The position numbers and the translations under genes were made by a program. 64,000 bases of DNA, taken from assembly GCF_004010195.1 (NCBI RefSeq), contig NC_057759.1:7365593-7429592 (forward strand). Direction: 5' to 3'. The notes beneath the pieces are model-generated. The model was not told the DNA's origin, ran no database searches, and saw nothing but the letters and a program-made list of their open reading frames with translations. Shown in pieces: positions 4,700 to 30,644 of the stretch. This DNA is from Chiloscyllium plagiosum (lineage: Eukaryota). Each line of letters starts with the position of its first letter. The stretch's first letter is position 1.

Positions 4700-5950
4700 G
4701 GAGAAAGAAGATGATTGTAGAGTCCTGTGATATGCTGCGTACCACAAGGATTGCTGCCGTGTCTATTGCTTTTTTTTCTCAATACAAATGACTTGGATTT
4801 TAATATAGTAGCATGGTTGTTAAGTTTGCACATTACACCAAAATTGTCGACATTGTTAACAGTGAAGGAGGTTATCTCTGGGTACAACGGGGCCTTGATC
4901 AGATGAGTCAATGGGTCAGGATATGGCAGATAGAATATAATGTGGATAGATATGAGGTGTTACCTTTTGGCAACGCAAATTAAGGCAAGACTTAAGTATT
5001 TAAACGGTGAGTCGAGAGGAGTGTTGCCGAAGTAAGAGATTTTAGGATGCAAGTTCGTAGTTCCTTGAAGATGGAGTCACCGTTAGACAGTGCAGTGAAG
5101 AAGACATTTGGTACTCTTGCCTTTATTGGTCAATTCATCGGGTATGAAAATGTGTTGCTGGAAAAGCGCAGCAGGTCAGGCAGCATCCAAGGAACAGGAG
5201 AATCGACGTTTGGGGCATAAGCTCTTCTCTGCCCGAAACGTCGATTCTCCTGTTCCTTGGATGCTGCCTGACCTGCTGCGCTTTTCCAGCAACACATTTT
5301 CAGCTCTGATTTCCAGAATCTGCAGTCCTCACTTTCTCCTCAATTCATCGGGTATGACAGTTTCAGCATTATTGGAGAGGTTACTTTTGAATGTTCCGTT
5401 CAATTTTGGATTACCAAAAATTCCAAGCATCTCCCTGTTATCGGAAAGATAATAGTAAACTTTAATCGGTGGAGAAAAGATTCACAGGATATTGCCGGGG
5501 CTGGACTTTTAGAACTACAGGGAGATAATGAATATTTCGTGCCTCTTTTCCTTGATGTTTCGGGAGTTTCGGGGTTACTTTCTGGCAGTTTATAAAATCA
5601 CAGGCTCGGATGCGGTGAATATCCAAAATCTTTTTCCCAGAGTAGGTGCAGACCAAAATTAGATGGCATAGGTTAAAGGTGAGAGGGGAAAGATTCAAAG
5701 GGCACCCAAATGGCAGCTTTATGATGTAGAAGGCTGTGTGCATCTGGACTGAGCTGCCAGAGGAAATGGCTGAGTCTGGTGCAATTACAATGTTGGAAAG
5801 TCATGTTAAAGGTTACGTGAATAGGAAGGGTTTAGTGGGATATGGGCAACAAGCTGGAAAATGGAACTTCATTAATTTAGGATATCAAGCCCGCATATTA
5901 GACCTTAGAACAGAACTGTCATTTTCCATTGTATGTACGGATATGACTCC
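4700..5950 (+). mobile_element. Old CR1 LINE 3' fragment, interrupted by a Penelope-like insertion
   Basis: Degenerate RT C-terminal sequence (aagtttgcacattacaccaaaattg; aggttaaaggtgagaggggaaagatt) and a CR1-type 3' tail (tatgactccatga). Confidence 0.8.
5148..5339. mobile_element. Short Penelope-like element end, inverted-repeat form, 18-bp TSD
   Basis: Inverted arms aaaatgtgttgctggaaaagcgcagc ... gctgcgcttttccagcaacacatttt. Direct repeat tcaattcatcgggtatga at 5130-5147 and 5340-5357. Confidence 0.8.
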
Positions 5951-6493
5951 ATGATATCGTATTATTTTCCAAAACACGCAGGTTATACACTGCTGCCTGT
6001 TGAAATAGCAGTGATCCTACGCCTTAGATATTGTGTAACGACATGTAGAACATACGATGCAAACTGATGAGTTTCTAAATGTTCTCCAGGGAAGGAAATC
6101 AGCTGCATGTGATTACAAGCTCACTGCAATGTGCTTGTCTTTTTAAGTTCTTTCTGGATAATTAGAGATGTACAATACGTTTGGTCAAACGAGTGATGCT
6201 CACAACCACTGAATGAACAAGAAGAAACATTTGCATTGTACTTTGAGATTATCAGTTCTGGAACAATGGTTGGACGGCAGCCCACCATATTTGACTTTAC
6301 TTAGCTGAAACACTACAGAGAGCTCCCATTGGTTTTCACCAGGTTAATCATTGTTCATGTCTGTCTCTCCACTTACAAATCTCCTCAGTCTGAGTAGATG
6401 GTTGACTGATGAGTGAAATGGTCCTTTCGCATGCACATCACGGAATAGTTTTTTTCTTTGCAATTATTAACAGCAATATAATTTGTGTTAACA

Positions 6494-6500
6494 TATAAAG
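6494..6500 (+). promoter_or_regulatory. TATA box of defensin copy 1
   Basis: TATAAAG starts 58 nt upstream of the ATG. The paralogous site TATAAG is at 22050-22055. Confidence 0.65.
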
Positions 6501-6551
6501 AGTTCCAATTCTCCAGGTAGTTCATAGTGCAGGAAAAGGTAATCAGCGGCC

Positions 6552-6645
6552 ATGAGAGCTTCCCTGTTCTTACTTCTTGGATTCTTGGTGATGGTGCAGC
6601 TGGGCACTGCTGAAGAAGGAGTGGAACCACGTCTTTTCTTTTCAG
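6552..6645 (+). CDS. Beta-defensin-like precursor, copy 1, exon 1 (signal peptide + acidic propiece: MRASLFLLLGFLVMVQLGTA-EEGVEPRLFFS)
   Basis: gcggccATG context, hydrophobic 20-aa signal ending G-T-A, consensus donor CAG|GTGAGT at 6646. The exon is 94 nt, giving a phase-1 intron. Confidence 0.88.
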
Positions 6646-7237
6646 GTGAGTCCATGTATCATCAAACATCGTTTAGAAGCATTCAGAAGGTCAGATGGAG
6701 GAGATTCATCCCCCTGAACACCACGTTCTCATCTGTAGTGTTTAGATTTACAAGTGCCTAAAATGAATTAGTTGACATGTACAAAATCTGTCCATGGGAT
6801 AGAGGCATCTCTGGCAAAACCGACATTTATTGGACCTTCCTAATGGCTCCAGAGGGCATTCAGTAGTCCATCACATTTCTGTGAATGTGGAGTCACATAT
6901 AAAGAAGAAAAGGGAAAAAATATCAGTTTACTTTCCCTGAAGGAAATGAGTGGAGTAGGTGTTTCTTACTTCCTTTACACAATTTGAACATGATCCGAAC
7001 TTCATTCCCTTCCATTGAGAGATTCGAAGACAGGTCCTCAGAATAGTTAGTCATGGATTGTGATTCTAGTGACAGTTCTGCATGTCCACCATCCAATCGC
7101 ATGACATTTGGTGAAGCAGTGCGGTCATTTCCCAGGAGTGCAGAATTTATTTTAGTTCACAACCATTTGTGCTGGTTTCTTGTTCACTAGAATTATTTCA
7201 CCATTTCATCAATTGCCTCCTCAACTTTACTTTCCAG

Positions 7238-7362
7238 GTGCAACCGTTGGCTGCGTAACCACTGGAGGAAAGTGCAGATTAGGAGGTTGTAAAGAGGGGG
7301 AAATCCAGCTGGAAGAGAAATGCTTAATACTTCTCAAGTGCTGCAAAGTTGACTTAAATTGA
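7238..7362 (+). CDS. Beta-defensin-like precursor, copy 1, exon 2 (GATVGCVTTGGKCRLGGCKEGEIQLEEKCLILLKCCKVDLN*)
   Basis: Polypyrimidine tract and tttccAG acceptor ending at 7237. Splices in frame to exon 1 (72-aa precursor). The C-x6-C-x4-C-x10-C-x5-CC spacing fits the beta-defensin signature, including the common GG-x-C before Cys2. Confidence 0.9.
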
Positions 7363-7494
7363 ATTGTGAAAATGTAATGCGGGCTACCAAGGTTCATCTG
7401 AGACTGTGGCTGAAGCTAACTGCTGTCTCTGTAATTTATTCGCTCTTGACTGTGTACATCCCCATAAAACCTTCTCCATTTCAATTGAATCGTG

Positions 7495-7500
7495 AATAAA
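7495..7500 (+). terminator. Polyadenylation signal AATAAA of defensin copy 1
   Basis: AATAAA about 130 nt after the stop codon, conserved in copy 2 at 23059-23064. Confidence 0.7.
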
Positions 7501-8061
7501 GCCCTCACTGCATTGCTCACATGTCGCGTCACGTGTCTTATTACAGAGTGTGCCCGGTATACGTTACATTGTCGCTAGTTTGGGGAGTGGAGGGGGATAA
7601 AACTCCAACAAATAGCAGTATCACAGTCGCCTCCACACTAGTCTTCTTCAGAGCCTAACATTTTGAGTCCATAGCAAATGACCAACTAATAATGTCTCTA
7701 GAATGAACGGGTGTATAATAAGCTGCTTCTTTCATTTCCATGATAACCTTCATCTAGAAAGCGAACTGCGACAGATATACAGTTCCCTGCAAGTTTCTTT
7801 CAGATCCACTCACCATCCTGATTTGGAAATGTGTCAGAGATTCCTTCTGTTTCATCAAAATCGGAGAATTCCCTCCCAAATATTTCTCTGTGGGCCATTC
7901 CATAGCACCGGGGCAGCAGATGGTTCAAGTAGAATTTCACTCGCATTTCCGAACATTCTCAAATGGACAAATGCGACGAGAAACAAATAACCGAATGGCC
8001 AGCATTCCTCACGACCCATTAGTGAAAACAAATCAAAAATTAGTAAATTCAGCAGTGGTGT

Positions 8062-8340
8062 TGAAAGAAAAAAAGAAATAAAGAAAGAAAGAGAGAAACA
8101 AGGGAAGAGAGAGAGAGAAATAGACAGAAAGAGGATAGAGAAAGAAAGTAAGAAAGAGAGAGAAAGGGAGTGAGAAACATAGAAAAAAGGATATCAGGAA
8201 AGAAAGAGATAGGAAGGAAGAGAGAGGAAGAAAGAGAGAGAAAGAAAGAGAGAGGAAGGAAGTGAGTGGAATGAAGAGAGAGGAAGGAAGACAGAGGAAG
8301 GAAGGAAGGAAGGCAGGAAGGAAGGAAGGAAAGAAAGAAA
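8062..8340 (+). repeat. Purine-rich (GA/GGAA/GAAA) low-complexity tract
   Basis: Directly visible. A shorter paralogous tract is at ~23890-24008. Confidence 0.9.
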
Positions 8341-9141
8341 ATTTCGTGTTTAGTTCTGTCAAGAAGTCTCACATTTTGGGAGATAAATGTGCTGGTGTCA
8401 GACTCAGTATCTGCAGCCGTCACTGTATTGTAACATACAACTATACGAAAATGACTGCAACAGCAGAATTACCTTCGCACATCCAACCAAAGAGAAAACA
8501 AACATGGAAGACATTTACCGACTTGCATTTAACTTTTGATCAATTTGTCAATGTTGTTGAGGAGCAGTCCACTACCATAGAACACCTACAGTACAGAAAC
8601 AAGCCATTCTGCCTAGCAAGATCTCTCCATAGGTTCAAAGAACAATCTTGTAGACGCAGCAATGACTTGCAAAATCCACACAGATATCCACCGAGGGTGG
8701 AACTGAACGTGGCTCTCTGCCACGACGAAGCAGCAGTGCGAAAGACCATGCCACTCCTGGGACACCGCAGTACCAATGTGACTGTCGTTGTTTCATGCAG
8801 GGGGAACTGGGTAATCGATTGGAGTAACTTGTGGGGTTTATCGGGATTGATGTTGCATTCAAAAAGCAAATATTGAATGCATGTGCAGTAATGTAGGGAG
8901 CCCAGAGGAGAGTGGGATTGTATTATTCTGAATGCAAAAGGGACAGAGAGACAGGAAGTCTTCGATTCTGAGTCATCATGTTGTATTTCACTCATTTAAA
9001 CTATTTGAAATTTCACATAGAGGTGGTTACAGAGGAAATCACACTCACACACACACACACAATACCAATCACAGGCACGCATGTACACACACTGAAAACA
9101 AAGCATACTCACCTCCTGCTCAAACTACATTGCAACAGATA

Positions 9142-10973
9142 CGACGTGTCCATGATATGTATGTACCTATCAGGCAGGAAAGAAATGGTCGTGTGAGGGA
9201 GCCTTGGTTGACGAGAGAGGTTGAATGTCTGGTAAAGAGAAAGAAGGAGGCTTACATAAGGTTGAGGAAACAGGATTCAGACAGAGCAGTGGAGGGATAC
9301 AGGATAGCCAGAAGGGACCTGAAGAAAGGGATTAGGAGAGCTAAGAGAGGGCATGAAAAATCGTTGGCGGATAGGATCAAGGATAACCCCAAGGCATTTT
9401 ATGCGCATGTGAGAAACCTGAGAATGACGAGAACGAGGGTAGGTCCGATCAAGGACAGTAGTGGGAGACTGTATATTGAGTCGGAAGTACTTCTCTTCAG
9501 TATTTACGAACGAGAGGGACCGTATTGTAGAAGAGGAGAGTGTGAAATGGACTGGTAAGCTAGAAGAGATACCTGTTAGGAAGGAAGATGTGTTGGACAT
9601 TTTGAACAACTTGAGGATAGACAAGTCCCCCGGGCCTGACGGGATATATCCTAGGATTATGTGGGAAGCAAGAGAGGAAATTGCAGAACCGTTGGCAATG
9701 ATCTTTTCATCTTCACTGTCAACGGGGGTGGTACCAGGGGACTGGAGAGTAGCGAATGTTGTGCCCCTGTTCAAAAAAGGGAATAGGGATAACCCCGGGA
9801 ATTACAGGCCTGTTAGTCTTACTTCTGTGGTAGGCAAAGTAATGGAAAGGGTACTGAGGGATAGGATTTATGAGTATCTGGAAAGACACTGCTTGATTAG
9901 GGACAGCCAGCACGGATTTGCGAAGGGTAGGTCTTGCCNNNNNGGAAGTCGTACGAGGGTAGGTTGAGAGTTCTCGGCCTTTTCTCGTTGGAACGGCGAA
10001 GGATGAGGGGTGACTTGGTAGAGGTTTATAAGATGATCAGAGGAATAGATAGAGTAGACATTCAGAAACTTTTTCCCCGGGTACAACAGAGTGTTGCAAG
10101 GGGACATAAATTTAAGGTGAAGGGTGGAAGGTATAGGGGAGATGTCAGGGGTGGGTTCTTTACCCAGAGAGTGGTGGGGGCATGGAATGCGCTGCCCTTG
10201 GGAGTGGTAGAGTCGGAATCATTGGCGACCTTTAAGCGGCATTTGGATAGGTACATGGATGGGTACTTAATTTAGGTTAGAAGTTCGGCACAACATCGTG
10301 GGCCGAAGGGCCTGTTCTTTGCTGTATTGTTCTATGTTCTATGTTCTAAAACTCTGGTGCGGCCGCACTTTGGAGTATTGCGTGCAGTTCTGGTCACCGC
10401 ATTACAGGAAGGATGTGGAAGCTTTGGAGAGGGTGCAGAGAAGATTTACCAGGATGTTGCCTGGAATGGAGAGGAAGTCGTACGAGGATAGGTTGAGAGT
10501 TCTCGGCCTTTTCTCGTTGGAACGGCGAAGGATGAGGGGTGACTTGATAGAGGTTTATAAGATGATCAGAGGAATAGATAGAGTAGACAGTCAGAGACTT
10601 TTTCCCCGGGTACAACAGAGTGTTACAAGGGGACATGAATTTAAGGTGAAGGGTGGAAGGTATAGGGGAGATGTCAGGGGTGGATTCTTTACCCAGAGAG
10701 TGGTGGGGGCATGGAATGCGCTGCCCGTGGGAGTGGTAGAGTCGGAATCATTGGCGACCTTTAAGCGGCATTTGGATAGGTACATGGATGGGTACTTAAT
10801 CTAGGTGGAATGCGCTGCCCGTGGGAGTGGTAGAGTCGGAATCATTGGCGACCTTTAAGCGGCATTTGGATAGGTACATGGATGGGTACTTAATCTAGGT
10901 TAGAAGTTCGGCACAACATCGTGGGCCGAAGGGCCTGTTCTGTGCTGTATTGTTCTATGTTCTATGTTCTATA
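9142..10973 (+). mobile_element. Young 5'-truncated CR1 LINE with reiterated 3' ends and a 5-N gap (9939-9943)
   Basis: Near-intact RT peptides (DKSPGPDGIYPR, GNYRPVSLTSVVGK, LEYCVQFWSPHYRKD) and (TTCTATG)n tails. Absent from the paralogous site at ~24780. Confidence 0.95.
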
Positions 10974-12856
10974 TATGAGACAGTGTATGGGTACTGTTGG
11001 AATATCAATACCAACTTTGACCATTTGGCTTACCGTCTGCCTGAAGAATTGAGGGGAAGAAAGCAAAAAAAAATCAAAATATGGTCAGTACCTTATGGGA
11101 GAGAAGAAGTCTGACTTTTCTCTGTCTTTACAGTAAATGGGAAAAAAAAAACAGAAATGATAGAGCAAGAGGAACTGGGAGAATGGAATCACTTTCAGCT
11201 GTTCAGCCACACATGCAGGTTCCCTCTGGATGATTGGAAAGAACCAGACATTTCAATTGCAGAATTATGTGGCATATCTGGTCCAAAACGGAATTTCAAA
11301 AAAACAACTGAGGTGAATGTCAGTGGATGTGTGGGGGAGACATCTAAGCAGCTATTTCATAACGTTCAGCAATGCTTGACTATGGGCAAAAAGAGAGACT
11401 CGAGAAGGAGATGAACCACCCGTGGTGCACAAAGGCTGTCAAGGACACAAACCAATCACAAACTAAAGAATTCAGATTGGCAAGCAGTAGTGTCGGCCGG
11501 GTTTGGGATGTTTATTTTTGGGAACAGAAGCAGGTAATACGAAGAAAAATGAAAGAAAAAGCACATAAGTAGCAAAACATTTTATAAACTCGCTGCAAGA
11601 CCTTTTCCGCACCGATTTAAAAAAAATACAATGTGTTTGTGACCCTTGGAAGAGACTCATTATATTACACGTGGAACAGCTGGAGGATGTAACTGGGGAA
11701 TTGATTTCAGGGAACAGGCGGAGAATTTACTCCAATGTTTTATATAGTTTCTTATAGCGGGAGTCACGAGGTATTTAATAGAACATAAAAGATAAAACAT
11801 AGAACGCTACAGCACAATACATGTTATTTGGCCTTCGATGTTGTGCTGACCTATCAATTAAATCTGATGCCCATTGAACATACACCAATCCATTGTTGTC
11901 CGCATGTGTGTCCAATGCCCATTTAAATGCCCTGAATATCAGGGAATCGATTACAGTTGCAGGCTGGCCATTCCACGCCACGACTACTCTCTGAGTAAAG
12001 AAACTACTCATTGTATCTGACATAAATCTGTCACCCCTCAATGTTAAACTATGTCCCCTTATGTAAGCCTTCACCATGCGAGGAAAAACGCCTTCAGTGT
12101 CCACCCTACCTCACCCTTGAATTATGTTATACGTCTTGATGAATTCACCTCTCAACCTTCTTCTCTCCAACGAAAATAGCTTCAGTTCCCTCAGCCTTTA
12201 CACGTAAAACCTTCCTTCCATTCAAGGAAACACCCCAGTAAATTTCCTCTGAACCCTTTCCAAAGCTTCCACGTCCTTCTTATAATGCGGTGAACAGAAC
12301 TGTACACAATACTCCATGTGCGGCCTTACCAGTGTCTTGTATACTTGAAATATGACTTGCTGGTTCCGAAAGCAGTCACACTACCAATAAAGGTATAGTA
12401 ACACACCGTATGCCTTCTTGACATCACTATCAGCCTGGATGGAAACTTTCAAGGATTTGCGCACCTGGACAAAGTTCAGGCTATGTTCATCTGCACTGCA
12501 AAGAGTTTTACCATTAATCCAGTAGTTAAATTCCTGTTACGTCTTCGGATGTGAACTACCTCACAATTTTCCGCATGAAACTTCATTTGCCAGTTCTCAG
12601 CCCAGCTCTACATCTTATCTGCTAAGATATTTGGATCATCGATAGTTACAGGTGAGGTGCCGGATGAGTGGACTTTGGCAAAAGTGGTGCCACTGTTTAA
12701 GAAGAGTGGCAAGGACAAGCTAGGGAACTATAAACGAGTGAGGCCGACCTCGGTTGTGGGCAAGTTGTTGGAGGGAATCGTTAGGGAAAGGATATACATG
12801 TATTTGAAAAGGCAAGGACTGATTAGGGATAGCCAACATGACTTTGGGTGTGGGAA

Positions 12857-13112
12857 GGAGAAAGTGAGGTCTGCAGATGCTGGAGATCAAAGTTGAAACT
12901 TTATTGCTGGAACAGCACAGCAGGTCAGGCAGCATCCAGGGAACAGGAGATTCGACGTTTCGGGCACAGGCCCTTCTTCAGGAAGGGCCTTCCTGAAGAA
13001 GGGCCTTCCTGAAGAAGGGCCTTCCTAAAGAAGGGCCTGTGCCCGAAACGTCGAATCTCCTGTTCCCTGGATGCTGCCTGACCTGCTGTGCTGTTCCAGC
13101 AATAAAGTTTCA
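12857..13112. mobile_element. Penelope-like element end, long inverted repeat with tandem 17-mer core, 16-bp TSD
   Basis: Inverted arms about 90 nt long; core of cttcctgaagaagggc repeats; actttgggtgtgggaa at 12841-12856 and 13113-13128. Confidence 0.8.
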
Positions 13113-13940
13113 ACTTTGGGTGTGGGAAATCATGTCTCACTTGATTGAGTTTTTTGATGAGGACAGAGCGGTAGATGTGACCTATGTGGACTTCAGTAAG
13201 GCGTTTGACAATGTTCCCCATGGAAGACTGATTTGCAAAGTAAGTTTTCATGAAATGCAGGGAAAACGTACCATTTGGAGACAGAATTGGCTCAAACGTA
13301 GAAGATAGATGGTGGTGGAGGGTTTTTTTTTCAGACTGGAGACCTGTGACCAGTGGAGTGCCAACAGGATCAGTGCTGGATCCTCTATTTTTTGTCACTT
13401 ACATAAATAATTTGTAAGCGAATGTAAGATGTACAGTTAGTGAGTTTGCAGATGACATCAAAATTGGAGGTGTAGTGGACAGCGAAGAGGGTTACCTCAG
13501 ATTACAACAGTATCTTGACCAGATGGGCCAATGGGCTGAGAAGTGGTAGATGGAGTTTAATTCAGATAAATGCGAGGTGCTGTATTTTGTGAAAGAAAAT
13601 CATAGCAGGCCTTATACACGTAATGGTAAGGTCCTACGAAGTGTTGCTGAACAAAGACATCTTGGAGTGCAGGTTCATAGTTCCTTGAAAGTGGAGTAGC
13701 AGGTAGATAGAATAGTGAAGAAGGCGTTTGGTATGCTTTCTTTTATTGGTCAGAGCATTGAGTACAGGAGTTGGGAAGTCATTTTGTGGCTGTACAGGTC
13801 ATTGGTTAGGCCACTGTTGGAATGTTGCGTGCAATTCGGGTCTCTGTCCTCTTGGAAAGATGTTGTGGAACTTGAAAGAGTTCAGAAACAAATTTACCGG
13901 GATGTTGCCAGGGTTGGAGAATTTGAGCAATGGGGAGAGG

Positions 13941-14063
13941 GGAAGGGCCTGTGCCCGAAACGTCGAATCTCCTGTTCCCTGGATGCTGCCTGACCTGCTG
14001 TGCTGTTCCAGCAATGAAGTTTCAACTTTGATCTCCAGCATCTGCAGACCTCACTTTCTCCCC
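13941..14063 (+). mobile_element. Penelope-like element end, single arm
   Basis: gaagggcctgtgcccgaaacgtcgaatctcc ... cctcactttctcc, same family as 12857 and 17410. Probable ggagagg TSD. Confidence 0.75.
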
Positions 14064-17000
14064 GGAGAGGCTGAACATGCTGGGGTTATTTTCCCTGAAG
14101 TGTCGGAGGCTGAGGGGTGACCTTATAGAGATTTACAAAATTATGAGGGGCACGGATTGCGTAAATATGCAAAGTCTTTTCCCTGGAGTCGGGGAGTCCA
14201 GAACTAGAGGGCATCGGTTTAGGGTGAGAGGGGAAAGATATAAAAGAGACCTAAGAGGCAACTTTCTTTCACACAGAGGGTGGTACGGGTATGGAATGAG
14301 CTGTCAGAAGCAGTGGTGGAGGCTGCAACATTTGCAACATTTGAGAAGCATTTGGATTGGTATATGAAAATGAAGGGTTTGGAGAGATTTGGGCCGGCTG
14401 CTGGCAGGTGGGCCTAGATTGGGTTGGGATATCTGCTCGGCATGGACGGGTAGGACCGAAGGATCTGTTTCCATACTGTACATCTCTATGACTCTGTGAC
14501 TCTGTAACCCATAACATCCACCGGCACTATCCACAACCCTGCCTAACTGTGTGTCATCAGCAAGTTTATGAAACCATTCTTCTACGCCACATACTTTACA
14601 CAAATGACAAATAAAAGATAGCCAAAAACAGATCCTTACAGCACACCACTGATAACTGATCTTCAGGATGAACATTTTCAATCAACCCGCTGATTTCTTT
14701 CAGCTAACGAATTTCTGATCCAAACCGCTAAATCACCTTCAATCTCGAAACGCTGCATTTTGTGCAATAGCCTACCGTGTGAAAGCACACAAACGCCTGG
14801 CTGAAGTTAATATGCACACATCGGCCGCTTTGCCTTCATTCACCTGTTCTGTCACCTTCTGTAAGAACTCAGTAAGGTTATTAAGGCATGACCAACCCTT
14901 CTCAAAACCGTGTTGACTATCCATAATCAAATTACTCCTTTCCAGATGATACAAATATTATCTCTTATAACATTTTCTAACACATTACCCAGAACTGAAG
15001 TAATTCTCTCTGACCTATACATATCAGGTTTAAGCCGAGTCCCCTTCTTAAAGAAGGGTACAGCATTTGCTGTCGTCCAGACATCTGACACTCCTCCTGC
15101 CGACAATGAACCATTAAGATCAAAGCTAAAGTCTCTGCCATCTCCTCCCTGGCTTCCCAGAGAATCCGAGCATAAATCCCATCCAGTCCAGGGGGCTTAT
15201 CTATTTTCAAAATTCTCAAAATTGCTGAAATCTCCTCTTTGTCAAACACAATATCATCTAATCTAGAACCTTACCTATCCGTATTGTTACTAACATTGCC
15301 CTTTTCCAATGTGATTACTGATAAAAAGTCTTCACTAAGCTCTTCCCCTATGTCCTTCGTTTCCACGCAAAACTTCCCACTACTATCTTTGATTGGCCTA
15401 ATATTCCTCTAGTCGTTCTTTAATTCCGGATATTCCTATCAAACGCTTGGAACATTCCTTGATCTTATCCAGCAGCAACTTCTCATATCCACTCCTGGCT
15501 CTTCTTAGCCCTCTCTGTGTATCATTTCTGGCTAACGTATAACTCTTAAGCCACCTATTTGAGGCTACACACTTTATCCTCACGTAAGCCATCTTCTACC
15601 TCCTGAGAAGAGCTTCAACTTCTTTAGTAAGCCATGGTTGATAGGTATTTACTTATCAAGGACCCGCTATAGCAACTTCTTAACAAGCTCCACAGTTCAC
15701 GTGTGTCCATTCCCTGCAGTTTCCTTCCCCATTCTATGCTTGTTAAATCTTGCCTAATCGCATCACAATTGTCTTTCTCCCAATTATCCCTCTTTCCCTG
15801 CTGTACATACCCATCCCTGTCCATTGCTAATGTAAACATAACCGAATTGTGCTCACAATCGCCAAAGTGCTCACCGACGTCCAAATCTAACACCAGGCCG
15901 CGTTCATTCCCCAGTACCAAATCCAAAATGGCATCGCCCTTTGTTGGCCTGTCTACATACTGTGTCAGAAGACCCTCCAGCACAGATTGAGTAGAAACTT
16001 ACACATCTAAAATACTTGAACTGTATTATTCCCAGTATATATTGGGGACGTTTATGTCCCCATACCAACTACCCTGTTACTCTCGTTCCTATCGAGAATC
16101 ATCTTTGCTATCCTTTTTTCTCCACCTTTGGAACAATTCAGAAGCTTATAGAAAACTCCCAATAGTGTGACTTCCCCTTCCCTGTTGCTAACCTGAGCCC
16201 AAACTATCTCAGTACTCGAACATTATCTCAGCTGCTGTAATACTAACCTTGATTAACAATGCCAACCCCTCCACACCAGCCTCAACCCCTTTTATCATCT
16301 TCGCTGTTCTTACTGAAACATCTACTTAGCGGAATCTGCAACAACCATTCTAGGCCCTCCTCTAGCTACGTCTCTGAAGTAGCCACAACATCGAAATCCC
16401 AGTCACCAAACCAGGCTGCAAGTTCACTCATCATATTCTGAATTTTTCTGGAATTTACATACACACATTTCAATTCAAAAACCTAATTGCAGGTGCCCTA
16501 TCGCGACCTCTAATCCTATCCCTGACTTCTTTACCCTCAACCTCCTGTACATTGGAATTACAATTCATATTGCCATCTGCCTGCTGCATTATTTTAAAAC
16601 ACCTCCCCCGAAGACCATTAACAATTCTGCCCCCAGCCCAATGATATTGGTACCTCTCTGGATTATTTGAAGACCATCCTGTTTTAGAAGAGCCACCTTC
16701 CCCAGAAAGTGCACAAATTATCGCCGAATCCAAAAACCTCTCTTCTATACTATTCCTGCAGCCACATGTTCAGCTCCGCTCTTTCCCTGTTGCTCGCTTC
16801 ACCCGCAGGTGGGACGACCAACAAAACAGAGATAAAACCTCTGTTGTTCTAGCTCGAAGTTTGCACACGAGCTCCCCGAATTTCTGCCTGAGATACCATC
16901 TATCTTCCTACCTTCTTTGTGGGTGCCAATATGGACCACGATTTGGGCCTGCTCCCCCTTCTCCGAAAGGGTCACAAAATCACGATCAGGGATATTACGA

Positions 17001-17409
17001 ACCCTGACACGTGGGAGGAAACACACCGACTGTGAGTCTCTATCGTTCCCACAAAACCTCCTACCTGTCCCCCGACAATGAAATCGCCAATGACAAAAAC
17101 TCTGTTCCTCTTCCCCTTCCCCTCTGAGCAACAGAGACAGACTCTGCGCCAAGAGACCTGCACCCTATTGTTTTTCCCTGGTAAGTAACCCAACACCCAA
17201 CAGTATCCAACACGGTATTGATGCTGTTAAGGGGAACCACCACATGACTTCCCTGCACTTGCAGACACTCTACCTTCTTCACGCGACTGTGGAGGAACTA
17301 CCTTCATGTAACTCCTCTCAGTAACCGCCTTCTCCTCCTCAGTTATCCAAAGAAAATCCAAATGAAACTCCAGTTCCCTCAATGAGCTGGAGTTGGTTGG
17401 GCATCACAC

Positions 17410-17562
17410 TTCTCCTGCTGAACACTCTCTGCTCATTCCTGAAGAAGGGCCTGTGCCCGAAACGTCGAATCTCCTGTTCCCTGGATGCTGCCTGACCTGC
17501 TGTGCTGTTCCAGCAATAAAGTTTCAACTTTGATCTCCAGCATCTGCAGACCTCACTTTCTC
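17410..17562 (+). mobile_element. Penelope-like element end, 8-bp TSD
   Basis: Same family sequence; catcacac at 17402-17409 and 17563-17570; empty paralogous site at ~33395. Confidence 0.78.
17435..17470 (+). ncRNA. Minimal type-I hammerhead ribozyme motif
   Basis: attc-CTGAAGA-a-gggc(ctgt)gccc-GAAA-cg-TC-gaat. Stem I attc/gaat, stem II gggc/gccc, conserved core, vestigial palindromic stem III. Confidence 0.7.
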
Positions 17563-18099
17563 CATCACACAAATGAAGTCAGCAGGGACAATAGAGATGA
17601 CCCTTACCTCCAACATTCTGCAGGAGGAACATTCAACTGCCATAACCTCCAATCATACTATTCTAAATACCCAAACAGATCACTGAAATAAATGAAACAC
17701 GAAGAAAAAGCACTTGCTACCTTCCCAACAGACGCACAGACCTTTTATTTTCATTAGAGGAGAAGGATAGATGGGAGACATTAAACAAATAGTCTTTTGG
17801 CAAAAGCAACAGCCCAAATATGTAACCTCGTGAACTCTCTGACAGACGTCAGGATCTCAAGAACAGGGGACCTAAAGTGAATTAACTTAGATTGTATACA
17901 CACTTATCCCGACAGGATCCACTGCTTCCTGGTGACCTTGCAGCATCTCCGACACACTCCAGGAACTATATTATAAGAAAGATGGTATCACGAAGTCTGT
18001 TCTTGAACTATCTCTATCAAAAGGAACAAGGCTTTTTTCAAACAGATAAGACAAAGCATCGACAAATCAGCAGCAAGTGACACACGGTTTAGAAGAAGC

Positions 18100-20700
18100 G
18101 GTTAAAGAGTAGACTGGTGGCACAGTGTGAAACATTCTTTAACTCTCTGGGTGGAATGAGTGTTCCAGAGAAACTGGAGAACCTCAAAGTGGGACATGTC
18201 TTCATGAAGGTCGTGGGACAGAAAACAAGAGACTACAGGCCATTCAGCCTGACAATTATGATTGGAAATATGCATCATTCTGCTATTCAGGAAGGAATTG
18301 CATATCATTCTAAAAAGCTTAACGCAATCAGATGCAACACGCTTTTGTGAAATGGGAATTTTAATTTGCACAGAAATATCATGCAAATTCTTGCAACATA
18401 TTTGATGAGAACAAAACCAGCAGATTTGGTGAAAGGAAAATGGATAGACCGCGAATTGGGTTTTCAGAATCTTTCAATATGGTTCTTAACATAACAAAAG
18501 AAAGGTTCTTACACAAGACAGAGGCTCATAATCTGACAGAAAATGTAACGGATGGATTTAGGATTTTTTAACACAGGAAAGATGGAGAGTCGGGATTAAT
18601 GGGTCTTTATGTGATTGAAAAGATACTTCTGCCAGAGTACTACAAATATCAGTCCTGTAGCAGCAGTTATTTACAATCTATACTTATGGCTTGAAGGCAG
18701 GGGATGAGTGCATTATATCCGAGTTTGTGGATGTCACAAACATATGTGGAAGTCCATATGGCAGTAAGGATGTAAGGAATCTGAAAGGGGAGGTAGATAA
18801 TGTCACTGAGAGGGCAAATAATTGGCAAGTGGAGAGTATGGTGTTAAAAAATGCATGAGATCCTCCACTTTACCCGTGAGGTCCCAAACGGCAGGCTGTT
18901 ACCGAATGGAGAATACTCGGAAAAAGAAGTGCAGTATAAAGGGATTTGGCTTTTATGTGTATGAAACATAAAGTTAGCGTGGAGGTGCAGCAAGTAATTC
19001 GGGGGAGTCATTAGGTTTTTTTTTGGTAAGAAAGTGCTTTTTTATCAAGAACAAATTACTTGTGGGGCTTCCCAAAGTAAGTGTTGAGAATGTAGTTCAA
19101 CTCCTGTGCAGAATCTCAAACTCGGGGCATAGACAGAGAATCAGCAAACTTAATTTAAAATTGACATGCAGAGAAATGTATTTTCTTCAGAACTTAGTGA
19201 GTGTCTGGAATTGCATAACCCAGAGAGTTGTGGCGGCTGGGTTATGGAAAGTCTTTACAGATAGAATGGATGGGTTTTTGACATATTGGCTTGTTGAGGG
19301 ATGCCCGGCGTCGGCAGGAAAGTGGAGTTGAGCCTTGATGTAGGTCAGCAATATGCTTATTTAATGACAGGTAGACTTGAGGAACCCAATAGACTACCCC
19401 TGTTCCTATTTCATACGTTATCACGCTCAGTTATTGGAAAGCAACTAGTTACTTTCCTGCAAGTCACGTTGTGCAACAATGCATTGACGGAGAGCAGAGG
19501 ATTAGAGTGAGCGAACCTTGTGTGGGGTATGGTGGCTGTATTCACAGTAAACCTGGGATTGCAAAATGGCTCACATTGGGAGCAGAGAGGAGAAGCCTGG
19601 AAAGAGGGATTGTGGTGTTGGGGGTGGCACGATTTTTCTTAGCCAGCAGAGATTTCTAACTGCATTTTCCGACCCTACACCTAAGGTTAGGAGTGGCCTC
19701 GGTCTGCTCCAGTGTAGCAGGGTGGAAGGGTAGAATGGAAAATCAGAACATAGGGCTAAGGGTCCCAAGTGAGCCATTCGGCCTATTGATACTGCTGAAC
19801 GAGTAAATAACTTCATGGCTAATCCCATTATGCTCTCAGCTGCACTTTTCTGTAAAGCCCCCATCATCCCTTATTGACCTGTCTACCAAATGTCGAACTA
19901 AGTTCGCCTTGATATAATATAAAGATTGAGCCATCACAAACTTCTGGGAAAGAGAATTCCCACTTGAATGAATTCCCAACTTGTGAATTTCTCCTCATTC
20001 CGTTTTCCCGTCCCATTTATCCTCTGGTCACAATAGATTTTAACTGTAACCGGATTGGTGATATGGTCAATGATAAAGTTTCAGACTGGCTCAGGTTCAG
20101 TGATAGGAACAAGTCAGGCAGATTTCTTTAGTCAACAACAAATAGTAGGCTAATTCCTGATGTGAGCTGCCGCTACAAATGTACAAAGCCTAATGACGAC
20201 AAATTTGGATGATAAAAACATCCAACGAGTCTCCAACTGATCCATTCTCCTCAAATTACTGTATGACATTATAAGATCACCTGTCATTTCAAGGGTTAAA
20301 CCCCATAATATAAGCCCTTCAATCCGGGAGTAAATGAAGTGAAACATCTCTGAACAGTTTCTAAAGTAACTATATCCTTTCTCAGTTCAGAACACCAAAC
20401 ACACTTCACACACAGTTCTAGGGATGTGTTCTCAGTCAGACTGGTGCAGCTGCAGAAACGCGCCCTTTCCACAGGGTTGTTTAAAAATACACCCAGCTGG
20501 CGCATTTTACATCTTTTTTTTCTTTTATATATTATCTTCAATTTATTACTGTGACGAGAACATTTATTTTCTTTTCTCAGAGTGCTGTGAGACTTGTTGG
20601 AAATTCTCTTCTCAGACAGCATTGGAGGCAGAGATACGGAACATTTCTGAGACACAGAGAGAAAGTCTCATGGATACAATGGAGTCAAGGATTATGAGGG
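18100..20700. mobile_element. Highly decayed CR1 fragments (+ strand ~18100-19400, - strand ~19750-20700)
   Basis: Remnant peptides DYRPFSLT, FLQNLVSVWN, LETVQRCFT. Confidence 0.65.
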
Positions 20701-21422
20701 AGTGGGCAAGAACGTGCAGAGTGGGTGAAAAATGCAGACAATGCTACTAAATGAAACTGCATTTTACCAGAGCAGCCAGAAATATAATGCAAGATGAAAT
20801 GATAACTTTAAAATGCTGGAAGTGATGGAATTATGTTGCTCTCGTCCCAGAGAACCGTCAGGCAGACCAATTATGGTGGTTGAACCTGATTGGCACCACT
20901 CCTCCAGTGTGGAGGTGAGGTTGAGAAACCTGGCCCTTCATAGTAACCTCTGTCAGTGTGGGAAATTGAACCTGCGCTATTGACCTTCCTCTGCATTAGA
21001 AACCAATCATCCAGCCAACAGAGTGGGAGACTATGCAACTGTTATGGACAGAAATAGTCAAAGACAAATGGCAATATAAACTTGGATAAGAAGGAAGAAG
21101 CTACGAGTCAGACAATATTCATGATAAAGGCTCACTGAGATATTACAATACTTTCAATATTGTATTGCTGGAGACAATTCATATTCTGCACACTGATGAG
21201 TGCTATGATTCTAAGACATCGCATTGTTGTCCAAACGACGCAGGTTATACACTGTTGCCTGTCCAAAAATCAGTGATCATACACCTTAGATATTATGTTA
21301 CCATATGCAGAACTGATGAGTTTCTAAATGTCCTCCAGGGAAGGAAACCAGCTGCATGGGATTACAAACTCACTGCAATGTGCTTGTCTTTTTAATGTCC
21401 CACTGAATGCTTGGAGGTTCGT

Positions 21423-21727
21423 GGGCGGTACGGTGCTACAGTGGTTAGCACTGCTTCCTCACAGCGCCAGAGACCCGCGTTCAATTCCCGACTCAGGCGA
21501 TTGACTGTGTGGAGTTTGCACATTCTCCCCGTGTCTGCGTGGGTTTCCTCCGGGTGCTCCGGATTCCTCCCACAGTCCAAAGATGTGCAGGTCAGGTAAA
21601 TTGGCCATGCTAAATTGCCCGTAGTGTTGGGTAAATGTCGGGGAATGGGTGGGTTGCGCTTTGGCGGGTCGGTGAGGACTTGTTGGGCGGAAGGGCCTGT
21701 TTCCACACTGTAAGCAAGTAATCTAAT
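21423..21727 (+). mobile_element. tRNA-derived SINE (HE1/V-SINE type)
   Basis: A-box/B-box head (cagtggttagcactgc ... gttcaattcc), V-domain tgtgtggagtttgcacattctccccgtgtctgcgtgggtttcctccggg, CR1-like 3' tail. Absent at paralogous ~6150. Confidence 0.92.
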
Positions 21728-22107
21728 GCTAGAGATGCACCGTACACTTTGATCGCCACGTCGACTGGATGAACAAGAAGAGCATTTAAGTTATAATTTA
21801 AGATTATCAGTTCCGGAACGATGGTCGGATACTAGCCCTCCTTATTTGATTATACTTAGCTGAGTAACTGCAGAGAATTCCCACTGATTTTCACCAGGTT
21901 AGTCATGATTCATTTCTGTCCCTCCACTAACAAATCTCCTTAATCTGAGTACATGATTCACTGATGAGCGAAATGGTCCTTTCTCATACACATCACGGAA
22001 TCGTTCCTTGCTTTTGCAATTATTAACAGCAATGTAGTTTGTGTTATCCTATAAGGAGTTCCCATTCTCCAGGTAGCTCACAGTGCCGAAAGAAGAAATC
22101 AGCGGCC

Positions 22108-22923
22108 ATGAGAACTGCCCTGTTCTTACTTCTGGGATTCTTGGTGACAGTGCAGCTGGGCACTGCTGATGAAGGAGTGCAACCACTTCTTCTCTTTCAA
22201 CGTGAGTCCATGTCTCCCCAAACATCCTTTAGAAGCATTCAGAAGGTCAGTTGAATCTGATTAGTTCCCTGAAAACTACATTCACATCTGTCGTGTTTAG
22301 ATTTACAAATGTCTAAAAAGAATCAATTGATACCTCCAAAAACCGGCCATGGAATGGACGCATCTCTGGCAAAGCTAACATTTTTTGTACCTTCCTAATG
22401 GCCCCAGAGGACATTCAGAAGTGAAACACGTTTCTGTGACTCTGCAGTCACATATAAAGAAGAAACGATAAGAACATCAGTTTACTTTCCCTGAAGGATA
22501 TGAGTTGAGTATTTATTTCCTATTTTCATTTCACAATTTAAACGTCATTCAAACTTCATTACTTTCCATTGAGAGATTCGAAGACAGGTCCTTAGAACAT
22601 GAGCTTGTTAATTCTGGATTCGATTCTGGTGACAGTCCTGCAAGTCCACCCTCCAGTCTCACGGCATTTGGTGAAGCAGTGCAGTTATTTCCCATGAGTG
22701 CAGAATTCATTTTAGGTCAGAAGCATTTGTAATGTTGTATTTTAGATTAGAATTATTTCACCATTTCATCAATTACCTCCTCATCTTTGCTTTCCAGATT
22801 GGCGCAACCGCTGCGAACAGTCTGGAGAGGTATGCAAGGTTGGAGAATGCCCAGAGGGTCAAAGTCGAGGTGGAAGGGAACTGCTTATTGCTTCTCAAGT
22901 GCTGCAAAGATGTCTTAAATTGA
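22108..22923 (+). pseudogene. Beta-defensin-like copy 2, join(22108..22201,22798..22923), +1 frameshift near 22860 (pseudogene or base-call error)
   Basis: Exon 1 is MRTALFLLLGFLVTVQLGTADEGVQPLLLFQ with donor GTGAGT at 22202; acceptor tttccAG ends at 22797. Exon 2 is 126 nt versus 125 in copy 1. Removing one base gives HWRNRCEQSGEVCKVGECPEG(K/Q)VEVEGNCLLLLKCCKDVLN*. Confidence 0.85.
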
Positions 22924-24751
22924 ATCGTGAAAGGGTAAATGTGCGGGCTACCAAGGTGTGTCTGAGACTGTGGCTGAAGCTAGCTGCTGTCTCTGTAATT
23001 TATTGTCTCTTGACTGTGTACGTCCCCAAAAAACCTTTTCCATTTCTACTAAATCGTAAATAAAGCCCTCACTGTATTGCTCACATGTCGTGCCACGAGT
23101 CTTCTTACAGACTGTGCGCAGTATGAATGATATTGTCGCTACTTTGGGGAGTGGAGGTGGAAGAAAGTCCAACAAAAGCAGATACGCAGTCGCCTCTGTT
23201 GGCTGCAAACTAGCCTCCTTCAGAATCTTACATTTTGAGTCCATAGCGAATGACAAACTAATATTGTCTCAAGTATGAGCAGGTGTATAATAAGCAACTC
23301 CTTCCATTTCCATGGTCACTTTCAACCAAAAGGTGAACGGCAACAGATACACAGGAATTCCACCACCCTGCTAGTTTCTCTCTGATCCACTCACCGTCCT
23401 GATTTCGAAATGTATAAGCTGTTACTTATGTTTCATCAAAATCCGAGAATTTGCTCCCAATCGTTTCGTTGTGGGCCCCTTCACAGCACCCGGCCAGCAA
23501 ATGGTTCAAGTAGAAGTTCACTCGCATCCCCAAACATTCTCAAACGGACAACTGTGACGAGCGACAAATAACTGAACGGCCAGCGTCACTCAAGACGCAT
23601 CAGTGAAAAGAAATCATGGGTTAGTGAATTCAGTGAAGTTGTGCTTTTCGGGGAATTAATCTCTGGGATGTCCTTCCCTACCACACCCCGCTTTCATCTG
23701 ACTGCAACTCTGTCTTGTTGCCTACTACTGAGTCGTTTTCCATCCTTCTGTTCTCTTTGACTCTCAAGACTCGACTGTGAAACTGTTCAATTGTTACAAA
23801 TGTTCATAAATGAATGCAAAAACTAGATTCCTCACGCATGTCGAGCACTGTAAATCCTCGAGCTGACGCTTACTGAAAGAAAGCAATAAGGAGTGAAACG
23901 AAGAGAGAAGGAAATAAAAAAAGAAAGAAGAGAGAGAGAGAGAGAAATAAATAAAGGAAAAACGAGGGAAAATAAACAACCACCCAACCAAAGGAAGAAA
24001 GAAAGAAATGTTCCTACTGAGTTCTGTCAACAGCTCTCACATTGTGGTGGAGAAATGTGCTGGTATCAGAACCAGCATCTGCACACGTCACTGTATTGTA
24101 CAGTATAAATGGATGAATACCACCGCAATACCAAAATTACCCTCACATCCCCGAATAAAACGTGAACAAACATGGAAGAAGTCTACCGACTTCCCCCTAA
24201 CTTTAGATCAGTTTGTCAATGCTATTAAAGAACAGTCTACTAACGTAGCACACCTACAGTGCGGAAACAAGTCATTCGGCCGAGCGAGGTCTCTCCATAG
24301 CTTCAAAGAGCAGCCTTGTGGACACAGTGATGACGTGAAAACTCCACACAGATATGCACCAAGAATGGAACTGAACGCAGCAGAACCCAACCCCATGCCA
24401 TCCCTGGAGGACAGCCGGACCAATGTGACTGCGGTTGTTTCATGCTCCAGGTGGACTGGGTTATCGGTGTGAACCACTTGAGATGGTTGCCTGAATTGAT
24501 GTCGCATTAAAAAAGCAAACATTGAATGTTTGTGCGGTGATGTAGGGAGTACAGCGGAGCATGGGATTCCATCTTTCTGGACGCAGGACGGACTGAGAGA
24601 TAGGAAACTCTTAGATTTTGAGTCATCATGTTGTAAATCACTCACTTAAAGGTTTTGGCATTGCATGGAGAGGTGGTCACAGAGTGACACACACACACAC
24701 AAACAGTCACAGACACGTATGTACACACAAGGAAAACACACGCATACTCAC

Positions 24752-24847
24752 CTTCTTCTCAATCTACATTGAAATAGGGATATGAGAAAGGGTATGGGCA
24801 CTGTTTGAATAGCAAGGCCAGCTTTGATAATTTGGCTTTCACTCTGC
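24752..24847 (-). other. Candidate 96-nt internal exon (antisense to the defensin), product unknown
   Basis: Minus-strand polypyrimidine tract with ttcttCAG acceptor and AAG|GTGAGT donor. Both sites are conserved in unit A (11040 and 9113), and one frame is open in both copies. Confidence 0.4.
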
Positions 24848-25254
24848 CTGAAGAATTGAGGGGAAGCAAAGAAAAAAACACACTATGGTCAGTCCCTCAT
24901 GGGAGAGAAGAAGTATGAAACATTATCGAGAGAAAGAGTTAGCTTCCAATGCAATCATGATTGTCAGCTTGTCATTCTCTCACATGTCTTTCCTTAACTC
25001 CTGTTTGTCTTCGTTTGACGTTCCCCTTTTCCAACTTCCTGTCGTTATCTGTTGGTCTCTGCATTTCTCTTTCTCTCTCGGACTCTGTCTCTCTTTCTTG
25101 TTCAATGTCTGTGTCTTTCTCTCTGACGCTGTCTTGTTCTGTGTCCCTTTCTATCTTTCTCTCTCTGTAACGCTCTCACATACATCCCCGCTCCACTCCT
25201 ACACCTCATCCTGCTTTATTTCAATCTCTCGCTTCTATTTCTTTCTCTCCAGAT

Positions 25255-28160: not shown

Positions 28161-29908
28161 ATTCTTTTTATCCTTGTTTTCACGTTCATTCTCTTGCTGT
28201 CCCTTTCTCTTAAATATTCTAGCCCCCATCTTTATGTCTTTCTATTTCATCAGCTTTCCTTCCATATTTCTCTCCTTCATTCTCTCCTAGACTCGAACTA
28301 TTTCATTCGTTTTTTCTGTTGATCTCACTTAAATCGCTTTATCTCTCTGTCACACTTCTACATTTGTCTCCAGTTTAATATATCTCATTTTGTTCTTTGC
28401 ATTGTTAGCTCTGTCTGACACTTTTTTCCCCGGTGTCTCATTGTTCACTCTGTCTTGTTTTTCCCCTGCCCCTTGCTTCATTTTCTCTTCCTGTCTTTTG
28501 TCTGTCGTACCAGGAAATGGAAAAACAGAAATGACAGAGCAAGAGAAACTGGGAGAATGGAGTTTATCTCTGAACGATTAGAACGAAACAGGCATTTCAA
28601 TTGCAGAATTCTGTCGATTCTCTGGTCTAAAATAGTGTGTGAAAATAGACAGAGGTGAATGTCAGTGGATGTGTGGGGGGTACTTTTAAGCAGCTATTTC
28701 ATAACACGCAGCAATGATTGACTATAGGCAAAAAGAAAGACTCGAGAAAAAGATGAACCATCAATGGTGCACAAAAGCTGTCAAGGTTATAAACCAATCA
28801 CAAATTAAAGAATTCAGGTTGACAAGCAATAGTGTCGACCGAATTTGGGATGTTTATTTTCGGAACCAGAAACAGATAATACAGAGCAAAATGAAAAGGA
28901 AAAGCATAAAATTGACAAGAAATGTATAAGCCAGCTGCAGGAGCGTTTCCATACAGAATTAAACAAAATCCAATGTGGGTGTGACCCTTGAAAAAAGCTC
29001 AGGGTAGCATAAGTGGGACAGCTGGAGGATGGAACTGGGGTTTGATTTCAGGGAACAGGCAAAGAATTGACTCCAATATTTTACATCGTTCTTCACATGG
29101 GAAGTTACGAAGTTATTTCATAGAACATAAAATATAAAACAGAGAACGTTACAGAACACTACAGGTTCTTCGGCCCTTATGTCATACTGACGTGTCAATT
29201 TAATCTGATACTCATCGAATCTACACCGTTCCATTGTTGTCCATATATATGTCCAATGCCCATTTAAATGCCCTTAACGTCAGGGAGTCTACTACCTTTG
29301 CAGGCAGGCCGTTCCACGCCACTACTACTCTCCGAGTAAAGAAACTGCCCAATGTATCAGACCTAAATCACCCCTCAATTTTAAGATTCGTTCCCTCTAT
29401 GTGGCCTTCACCATCCGAGGAAAAAGGATCTCACTGTCCACCCAACCGAACCCTTGGATTATGTTATATGTCTCGATGAAATCACATCTTAATCTTCTTC
29501 TCTCCAACAAAAACAGTTTCAGTTCGCTCAGCCTTTCCTAATAAAACATTCCTTCCATTCAATGCAACACCCGAGGAAATCTCCTCTGAACCCTTTCCAA
29601 AGTTTCCACATCATTCCTACAATGTGGTGGCCAGAACTGAACACAATACTCCATGGGCGGTCTTACCAGTATCTTGCACACCCGAAACCAGTCACCCTAC
29701 CAATGAAAGCCAACACACTGTATGCCTTCTTGACAACTCTATCAGCCGGGGTGGAACATTTCAAGGATTTATGCACGTGGACAAAGTTATCTCTTTGTTC
29801 ATCTGCACTGCCAAGAATTTTACAATTAGGCCAGTACCCTGCATTCCTGTTGCTTCTTCGGAAGTGATCTCACTCACACTTTTCTGCGTTAAACTTTATT
29901 TACCACGT

Positions 29909-30219
29909 GGGCGGCACGGTGGCACAGTGGTTAGCACTGCTGCCTCACAGCGCCAGAGACCCGGCTTCAATTCCCGACTCAGGCGACTGACTGTGTGGAG
30001 TTTGCACATTCTCCCCGTGTCTGCGTGGGCTTCCTCCGGGTGCTCCGGTTTCCTGCCACAGTCCAAAGATGTGCGGGTCAGTTGCATTGGCCATGCTAAA
30101 TTGCCCGTAGTGTTAGGTTAAAGGGGTAAATGTAGGGGTATGGGTGGGTTGCGCTTCGGCGGGTCGGTGTGGACTTGTTGGGCCGAAGGGCCTGTTTCCA
30201 CACTGTAAGTAATCTAATC
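29909..30219 (+). mobile_element. tRNA-derived SINE (HE1/V-SINE type)
   Basis: Same family as 21423; inserted in the CR1; absent at paralogous ~12592. Confidence 0.92.
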
Positions 30220-30644
30220 TTCTCAGCCCAGCTCTGCATCTTGTCTATGTCGCTCTGTAATCCATAACATCCGTCGGCACGATCCACAACTCTGCCTACC
30301 TATGTCCACATCCATATCATTTACAAAAATGAGAAGCAGAAGAGAGCCAAAAACAGATCCTTGCGGCACATTACCGAGAACTGACCGTCAGGATGAACAT
30401 TTTCCATCAATCACCACCCCCTGACTTCTTCCAGCTGCACAATTTCTGATTCAAATCGCTAAATCACCTCCAATCTCGAAACTCTGTATTTTGTGCAATT
30501 GCTTACTGTGCGGAAGCTTATCAAATGCTTCATTGAAGTTAGTATGCCCACATCAGCCGCTTTGGCTTCATTCACCTGTTTTGTCACCTATTTGAAGAAC
30601 TCAATAAGGTTATTGAGGCACGGCCTACCCTTCTAGAAACCGTG

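Follow-up and report, generated by a model that had tools for sequence, protein, structure and literature searches.

In the mammalian beta-defensin clusters described at human 8p23 and in mouse, the genes have two exons, the first encoding the signal peptide and the second the six-cysteine peptide. After duplication exon 2 diverged rapidly while exon 1 stayed nearly static, and selected sites were also reported in the prepro region (PMC1156880). Lizard beta-defensins follow the cysteine consensus C-X(6-7)-C-X(3-5)-C-X(8-14)-C-X(5-7)-CC and have expanded in tandem (PMC12278569). Teleost beta-defensins are made as prepropeptides of 60-77 residues with six cysteines and include anionic members in flounder; their genes comprise three exons, two of which share the cysteines, whereas in humans and birds the gene has two exons and a single one of them encodes all the cysteines (PMC3978493). 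For cartilaginous fishes, a 2019 review gives transferrin, squalamine and kenojeninin I as the only antimicrobials isolated from sharks and skates (PMC6795676). No paper on beta-defensins from this group was found in the open literature, and subscription journals or shark genome annotation tables could list such genes; the available parts of PMC7203481, PMC10707392 and PMC13337447 make no mention of shark defensins. Here, a 64,000-nt stretch of the shark Chiloscyllium plagiosum (contig NC_057759.1 of assembly GCF_004010195.1, positions 7,365,593 to 7,429,592 of the forward strand; hereafter the window) was found to carry two small two-exon genes on the plus strand, one in each unit of a tandem duplication. 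Each encodes a signal region and a six-cysteine peptide of beta-defensin type, and the first half of the second exon has diverged between them far beyond the surrounding DNA. Diversifying selection is probably the best reading of this excess, unproven as it is from a single pair.

Copy 1 has an open frame of 72 codons, with its ATG at 6552 and its stop at 7360-7362. The coding part of exon 1 (6552..6645) encodes a hydrophobic signal region (taken as codons 1-20, with the cleavage site judged by eye) and a short acidic pro-segment, and it ends in phase 1 at a position backed by spliced public contigs. A GT...AG intron of 592 nt (6646..7237) separates it from the coding part of exon 2 (7238..7362), in which the frame stays open and the cysteines are spaced C-X6-C-X4-C-X10-C-X5-CC. 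A TATA-box-like motif, presumably functional, lies 58 nt before the ATG (6494..6499). The 3' untranslated region (UTR; 7363..7515, end approximate) holds an AATAAA at 7495-7500, and the spliced contigs stop just past the matching signal. Copy 2 has an intact exon 1 (22108..22201, ATG at 22108), a GT...AG intron of 596 nt (22202..22797), a TATA-like motif upstream and an AATAAA downstream (23059..23064). Its exon-2 coding part (22798..22923) still has the complete set of six Cys codons, together with the homologous stop, and is one base longer than that of copy 1. The extra base lies between the codons for Cys3 and Cys4 (about 22857-22862), where the assembled frame shifts and then runs to 23063. 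Neither tblastn nor sensitive blastn detected a third copy of the gene in the window.

On the basis of motif, precursor and gene layout, the two genes were filed as putative divergent beta-defensins. Copy 1 fits the cysteine consensus given above for lizards, with which the locus also shares tandem expansion, and copy 2 retains the six codons in a broken frame. The 72-residue precursor with its hydrophobic N-terminus falls within the beta-defensin range of about 60-80 residues and within that of the teleost prepropeptides. Signal and mature peptide are placed on separate exons joined across a phase 1 GT-AG intron, and spliced contigs of copy-1 type were present in two of four public runs. This is the layout shared with the mammalian clusters and with birds; the teleost genes differ from it, since here all six cysteines lie on the second of two coding exons. 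A single-sequence structure model predicted beta strands at low confidence (pLDDT 63.6), and two fold searches with this low-confidence model gave no defensin among their listed matches. The best sequence matches of copy 1 among solved structures were avian, namely beta-defensin 3 (AvBD3, 7lzl; E = 0.019) and gallinacin-2 (2lg5; E = 0.12). Compared with these, copy 1 is one residue longer between Cys3 and Cys4 and carries Glu instead of Gly before Cys4. The Gly two residues before Cys4 is usually conserved in beta-defensins; copy 1 has Glu at this place (7315-7317), and Gly is found in copy 2 (22876-22878) as well as in the avian matches.

A family signal is present in the similarity results, and its weakness counts against this assignment. 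The avian matches are weak, and the Pfam model Defensin_beta scored 6.8 bits (E = 9.3) against a cut-off of 21. The top three ESM Atlas clusters were all beta-defensin, at 0.84-0.77 with 178 of 256 features shared by the best, and values below 0.9 serve as a lead only. No homologous protein was found by word index, and another protein search gave 0 matches among 1.84 billion representatives. These nulls say little, because a retroelement protein from the window also matched nothing closer than 67%; the lineage seems to be poorly covered by protein collections. A 30-letter pattern from the signal region likewise gave 0 matches in metagenome contigs.

The six-cysteine scaffold and fast evolution are also known from venom peptides with the beta-defensin fold, such as crotamine and the platypus defensin-like peptides. 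The locus differs from these in that no toxin appeared among the structure-sequence or Atlas matches and in that strong positive charge is absent. The preliminary description had likened the divergence pattern to host-defence and toxin families; the comparison with host-defence peptides fits, and there is no sign of a venom toxin. The exon-2 peptide of copy 1 has 6 basic and 5 acidic residues and the two unbroken parts of copy 2 have 5 basic and 7 acidic ones, so that, in contrast to the mammalian beta-defensins, the peptide is nearly neutral.

Divergence between the two copies is distributed very unevenly. In the signal region, 17 of 20 residues are identical and 5 of 60 nt differ, while in the exon-2 peptide identity falls to 18 of 41 residues (17 of 39 codons without the two at the copy-2 break, which add one Gly common to both). 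All six Cys codons are kept in both copies, for which the chance is 0.005 at the exon distance and 0.07 at the background distance. The 3' UTR (17 of 153 nt different) and the final 60 nt of the intron (8 differences) are more similar than exon 2. The counts for signal region, exon-2 peptide and cysteines had been put forward in the preliminary description and were reproduced, as was its remark on the greater similarity of the UTR and the intron end. Signal region and UTR are themselves below background divergence (p = 0.03 and 0.02); thus the intron is the fair contrast, and a comparison with UTR or signal region exaggerates the effect. Measured in this way, 40 of 125 positions differ in exon 2 against 102 of 589 in the intron (Fisher p = 2.7e-4) and 279 of 1617 in pooled non-coding sequence (p = 9e-5). 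The corrected distances are 0.42 for exon 2 and 0.20 for the intron, an excess of about 2.1-fold.

Further analysis revealed that within exon 2 the excess is confined to the 5' half, where 30 of 62 nt differ, the 3' half being at background (10 of 63). The hyper-divergent patch runs from the residues before Cys1 through Cys3 (7238..7292), with 29 differences in 55 nt between the copies. In a change-point fit the best left edge was the first base of exon 2, and left edges of 7229-7242 and right edges of 7279-7321 lay within 3 log-likelihood units. A randomly placed tract would start so near the exon edge about 0.8% of the time and fall wholly within exon 2 about 4% of the time. When columns were permuted, the best 60-column window was reached in 0 of 20,000 trials and the best 124-column window with p = 0.0035. 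In the duplicated sequence outside exon 2 (8,997 columns in 11 blocks), the maximum per 55 columns was 24 differences and 0 of 8,403 windows reached 25; the two duplicated blocks adjacent to the genes peaked at 15. The patch substitutions comprise 12 transitions and 18 transversions, and CpG decay was rejected as their cause because the patch is rich in transversions. In the pro-segment (codons 21-31; 6612-6645 against 22168-22201), there are 6 residue-changing and 0 silent differences at a total divergence equal to background. The end of exon 1 was variable in every comparison with public contigs. At the very start of exon 2 (7238-7254 against 22798-22814), a 7-nt and a 4-nt block stand in opposite order within short imperfect inverted repeats, which could be the trace of a template-switch event.

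Codon-level tests, from which the two codons at the copy-2 break were excluded, gave results that depend on the neutral reference. Against non-coding sequence the excess of residue-changing differences is clear. The proportion pN in exon 2 is 0.35 compared with a non-coding divergence of 0.173 (bootstrap p = 0.001), omega is 2.66 when the neutral distance is fixed at 0.20 (p = 3e-5), and 21 of 38 residues are changed where non-coding pseudo-codons give 13.1 +/- 2.8 and reach 21 in 0.2% of cases. A site-class model with free distance returned 0.21, which is the non-coding value, and placed 29% of sites at an omega near 35 (p = 0.027); with the distance fixed at 0.20 or 0.28, p was 4e-6 or 0.001. 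By simulation, the selection model reproduced all five summary counts of the patch (codons 33-51).

Set against diversifying selection are the tests that use the synonymous changes of the exon itself, together with the simplicity of the models. The one-ratio omega of exon 2 is 1.66 and not significantly above 1 (p = 0.32), counted dN is 0.47 against a dS of 0.31 (bootstrap p = 0.10), and for the patch omega is 1.29 (p = 0.71) with 9, 10 and 9 differences at the three codon positions. All codon models used equal codon frequencies, a kappa fixed at 2.6 and two sequences only. The model fits gave an omega of 35-49, an implausibly high value that is driven by codons hit more than once, a known source of false positives in selection tests (10.1101/165969). 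The test based on the exon's own dN/dS is not significant because such multi-hit codons hide synonymous steps; 10 of the 19 codons in the patch carry two or three differences. Moreover, pairwise dN/dS averages have been described as too weak for beta-defensins, which are short genes (PMC1156880). The preliminary description had counted only two codons as purely synonymous. The TGT/TGC pair and the Gly at the break were indeed found, but this is an undercount: among codons 33-51, four that change the amino acid cannot be connected by any path without a synonymous step, and the number of synonymous differences in exon 2 comes to about 7.8 when counted over pathways. Of the two contrasts on which the preliminary description let its reading stand or fall, exon-2 dN is clearly above intron and flank divergence and not significantly above the exon's own dS. 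The diversifying selection that it proposed is similarly upheld by the non-coding baseline and the site-class model and left without significance by the one-ratio omega.

Further evidence came from contigs of public sequencing runs. Copy 1 was matched by 24 runs, none of them recorded as RNA, and contigs from four of these (X1, X9, X13 and X15) were aligned to copy 2 at 85% likeness. In X9 (organism B) and X13 (organism D), contigs of 399 and 385 nt, at depths of 112 and 338, cover only parts of exons. They cross the intron with 76 letters, as predicted for spliced copy 1, where copy 2 predicts 77. Their difference counts are exactly those between copy 1 and copy 2 (9, 22 and 3 gaps; 4, 22 and 3 gaps). 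Because of the exon-only cover, the splice joint and the adaptor-like loose ends, which we take to be adaptors, these contigs are read as likely cDNA of a copy-1-type gene, with processed DNA copies as an alternative. This reading supports both the gene model and its expression. The share of copy-1 words in the spliced contigs is 0.28, close to the 0.283 expected for all exons (0.233 without the patch), a closeness that falls short of proving an identical patch. No spliced contig of copy-2 type was present among the pieces listed from the four runs.

A counterpart of copy 2 was found in X15 (organism E), where a single 2,006-nt contig (depth 7.3) aligns without a break from 22057 to 23120. It shows 77 differences in about 1,060 nt (92.8% identical) and is one letter shorter in the region of the break, so that the frame of this counterpart is open; at the end of its exon 1, four gaps of one letter each compensate one another. 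On a clock estimate, about 61% of the copy-2 branch precedes the split from this counterpart. By inference, these two findings support the earlier suggestion that copy 2 remained functional through most of its history.

Further paralogs show divergence at the same place. X1 (organism A), which shares 82% of copy-1 words, holds a third paralog (records 3 and 5) with 67 differences from copy 2 in 637 nt (89.5% identical), mostly intron, whose exon 2 fails to align. Its record positions imply that it is probably one letter shorter than copy 2. When read by hand, it has at least 5 differences in codons 27-31, all of the listed ones residue-changing; 5 in 15 nt at a background of 10.5% corresponds to p = 0.016. 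A second gene in X15 (record 13, depth 3.4, errors possible) likewise aligns across intron and UTR but fails to do so in exon 2. Exon-2 divergence thus appears to recur among paralogs and to reach into the end of exon 1, as protein-level selection predicts. The X15 record 13 carries an additional letter in exon 1 (at 22189) and lacks 10 letters across exon 2, and may be another broken copy. A more distant paralog (X9 record 17, X13 record 9) has only 35 nt of the signal region in common with copy 2 (22140-22174); its depths of 104 in X9 and 397 in X13 are similar to or above those of the copy-1-type contigs. Two further divergent signal-region variants occur among the loose ends in X15. In X1, two 140-nt contigs over 22046-22185 (depth 11 and 24) differ from copy 2 at 5 and 10 positions, compared with 18 for copy 1. 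They represent further family members, perhaps at different copy number. In X1, neither 22817-22853 is covered by any contig nor the intron by a contig close to copy 2, and this run thus gives no cover at the frameshift site, a hole that is no evidence on the frameshift itself.

The main rival to selection is short-tract gene conversion or exon exchange, in which one copy would have received the opening 55-80 nt or so of its exon 2 from a much older paralog, a tract that selection may itself have fixed. The patch would then predate its flanks, and its differences would not have accumulated singly since this duplication. This is unlikely. Silent divergence is raised in the patch as well (counted pS 0.47 against 0.173) and the one-ratio omega lies near 1, both of which an old tract would give. 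The log-likelihood of an older-patch model (-103.1, 4 parameters) is within 1 unit of that of the selection model (-102.2, 3 parameters), a closeness that tells against selection. So does the UTR piece of the third paralog, which differs at 12 of 69 positions against 10.5% in the intron (p = 0.055), as tract exchange would give. More distant paralogs exist, seen as contigs from X9, X13 and X15 whose likeness is limited to part of the signal region; if such paralogs were alike only in their exons, this could pin a tract to the exon edge. Conversion nevertheless fits somewhat worse. Only one of six unchanged patch residues shows a silent change, an outcome with a probability of 0.67 (0.67-0.70) under selection and of 0.105 under the best older-patch model (0.105-0.27), so that the simulation check favours selection about six-fold. 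A donor about 50% identical would also be a poor substrate for conversion. In addition, the residue-changing differences of the third paralog cluster at the end of exon 1 too, beyond a 600-nt intron of ordinary divergence.

More improbable is the idea that a few complex mutations, such as compensated indels, template switching at inverted repeats or multi-nucleotide changes, were tolerated in exon 2 with little positive selection. For the first four codons, a compensated 4-nt insertion and 4-nt deletion aligns better than substitutions under background scoring (gain 3.4, p = 0.013), which speaks against reading these codons as selected point changes. This gain disappears under scoring for 30% divergence, and the event would span only about 12 of the 55 nt. 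The many patch codons with two or three differences are also of the kind that drives false positives (10.1101/165969), but nearby non-coding sequence shows no excess of adjacent differences: the two gene-proximal blocks have 26 against an expected 29.1 and 25 against 20.2 (a third, farther block has 49 against 40.9). No non-coding window is comparable to the patch, and the alignment also breaks in exon 2 of further paralogs.

Relaxed constraint on an early and drifting pseudogene would account for the frameshift of copy 2 and for the lack of a copy-2-type spliced contig among the listed pieces, but it is largely refuted: drift predicts the background divergence of 0.20 and not 0.42-0.78, copy 2 retains the six Cys codons along with its ATG, splice sites, stop and poly(A) signal, and the organism-E counterpart lacks one letter where copy 2 is broken. 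An assembly artefact or a chimera of two paralogs within the patch, for which the small gaps and repeats of the window and the multi-copy nature of the family might speak, is hardly credible given that the organism-E contig passes through copy 2 unbroken and that the spliced contigs agree with copy 1 in length, difference counts and word share.

With diversifying selection as the preferred reading, the history of the locus can be proposed as follows. A tandem duplication would have copied a two-exon gene of beta-defensin type, whose product would be a secreted prepropeptide with the signal region and acidic pro-segment from exon 1 and the six-cysteine peptide from exon 2. The layout and the splicing of copy 1 are those described above, and secretion, processing and disulfide pattern would follow those of other beta-defensins, with cysteines paired 1-5, 2-4 and 3-6. 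After duplication, selection would have promoted residue changes in the N-terminal half of the mature peptide, with cysteines and signal region conserved; the excess divergence itself is limited to the patch, and selection is its presumed cause. Copy 2 would have stayed open for most of its branch and then been frameshifted, unless the extra base is an assembly error, within a multigene family that evolves by birth and death as copies are gained and lost. Taken as a whole, a secreted, processed and disulfide-bonded host-defence peptide, diversified by selection in its N-terminal half and belonging to a family that gains and loses copies, is in our judgement the probable explanation. The weak charge argues for specific targets, such as microbial surface molecules or host receptors, rather than plain cationic membrane lysis. 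It is therefore more likely that the peptide acts through such targets than by lysis, with the N-terminal patch as its putative specificity surface.

The surroundings of the genes are rich in repeats. The tandem duplication (5942..34730, plus strand, unit about 15.5 kb) was recognized by self-blastn, in which 5942-9138 matches 21204-24777 and blocks in 10973-19371 match 24780-34730. Its 11 aligned blocks diverge by 14-25%; some of them are transposon copies, possibly of other ages. An insertion upstream of copy 2 (21420..21727), seen as an alignment gap and absent from copy 1, resembles copies at 29906-30218 and 58768-59066 and is presumably a SINE. No flanking host gene was found among 11 long open reading frames scanned, of which three gave Pfam matches, all to retroelement domains, and Rfam gave 0 matches. 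The small gaps of the window include one of 5 N at about 9940, which adjoins 97-98% identical LINE segments (9944-10971); an exact 94-nt tandem duplication lies at 10712-10900, and these features together may be an assembly artefact. A degenerate tandem array with a 65-nt unit, more than 40 copies and about 67% matches occupies 49108-51918. Another local duplication, about 1 kb long (53706-55435, 73-75% identity), shows no defensin match, and 59827-64000 is a degenerate repeat region with strong G skew and many self-matches.

Fast change in exon 2 beside a static exon 1 is a pattern already described for mammalian beta-defensins and also known from birds. It will be no surprise to defensin specialists, and the value of the finding lies in where the pattern occurs. 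New here are a selection test measured on a single pair, spliced contigs of the copy-1 kind and a counterpart of copy 2 whose frame is open. A reproductive role is known for some mammalian beta-defensins and is conceivable here too. It can tentatively be suggested that cartilaginous fishes possess an expressed, previously undescribed multi-gene family of two-exon beta-defensins with birth-and-death turnover, under strong selection in an otherwise slow-changing genome. The weakly charged peptides of this family would vary in an N-terminal patch, encoded across the exon junction, through which microbial ligands, host receptors or partners in the reproductive tract would be recognized. With natural pairs of peptides that are distinguished chiefly by this one patch, such recognition would be directly testable. 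If a family of this kind is expressed and fast-diverging in this lineage, adaptive beta-defensin clusters and the exon layout that goes with them would be older than the divergence between bony and cartilaginous fishes. If this is true, the two-exon, clustered and adaptive state would be ancestral for jawed vertebrates and the three-exon state of teleosts derived.

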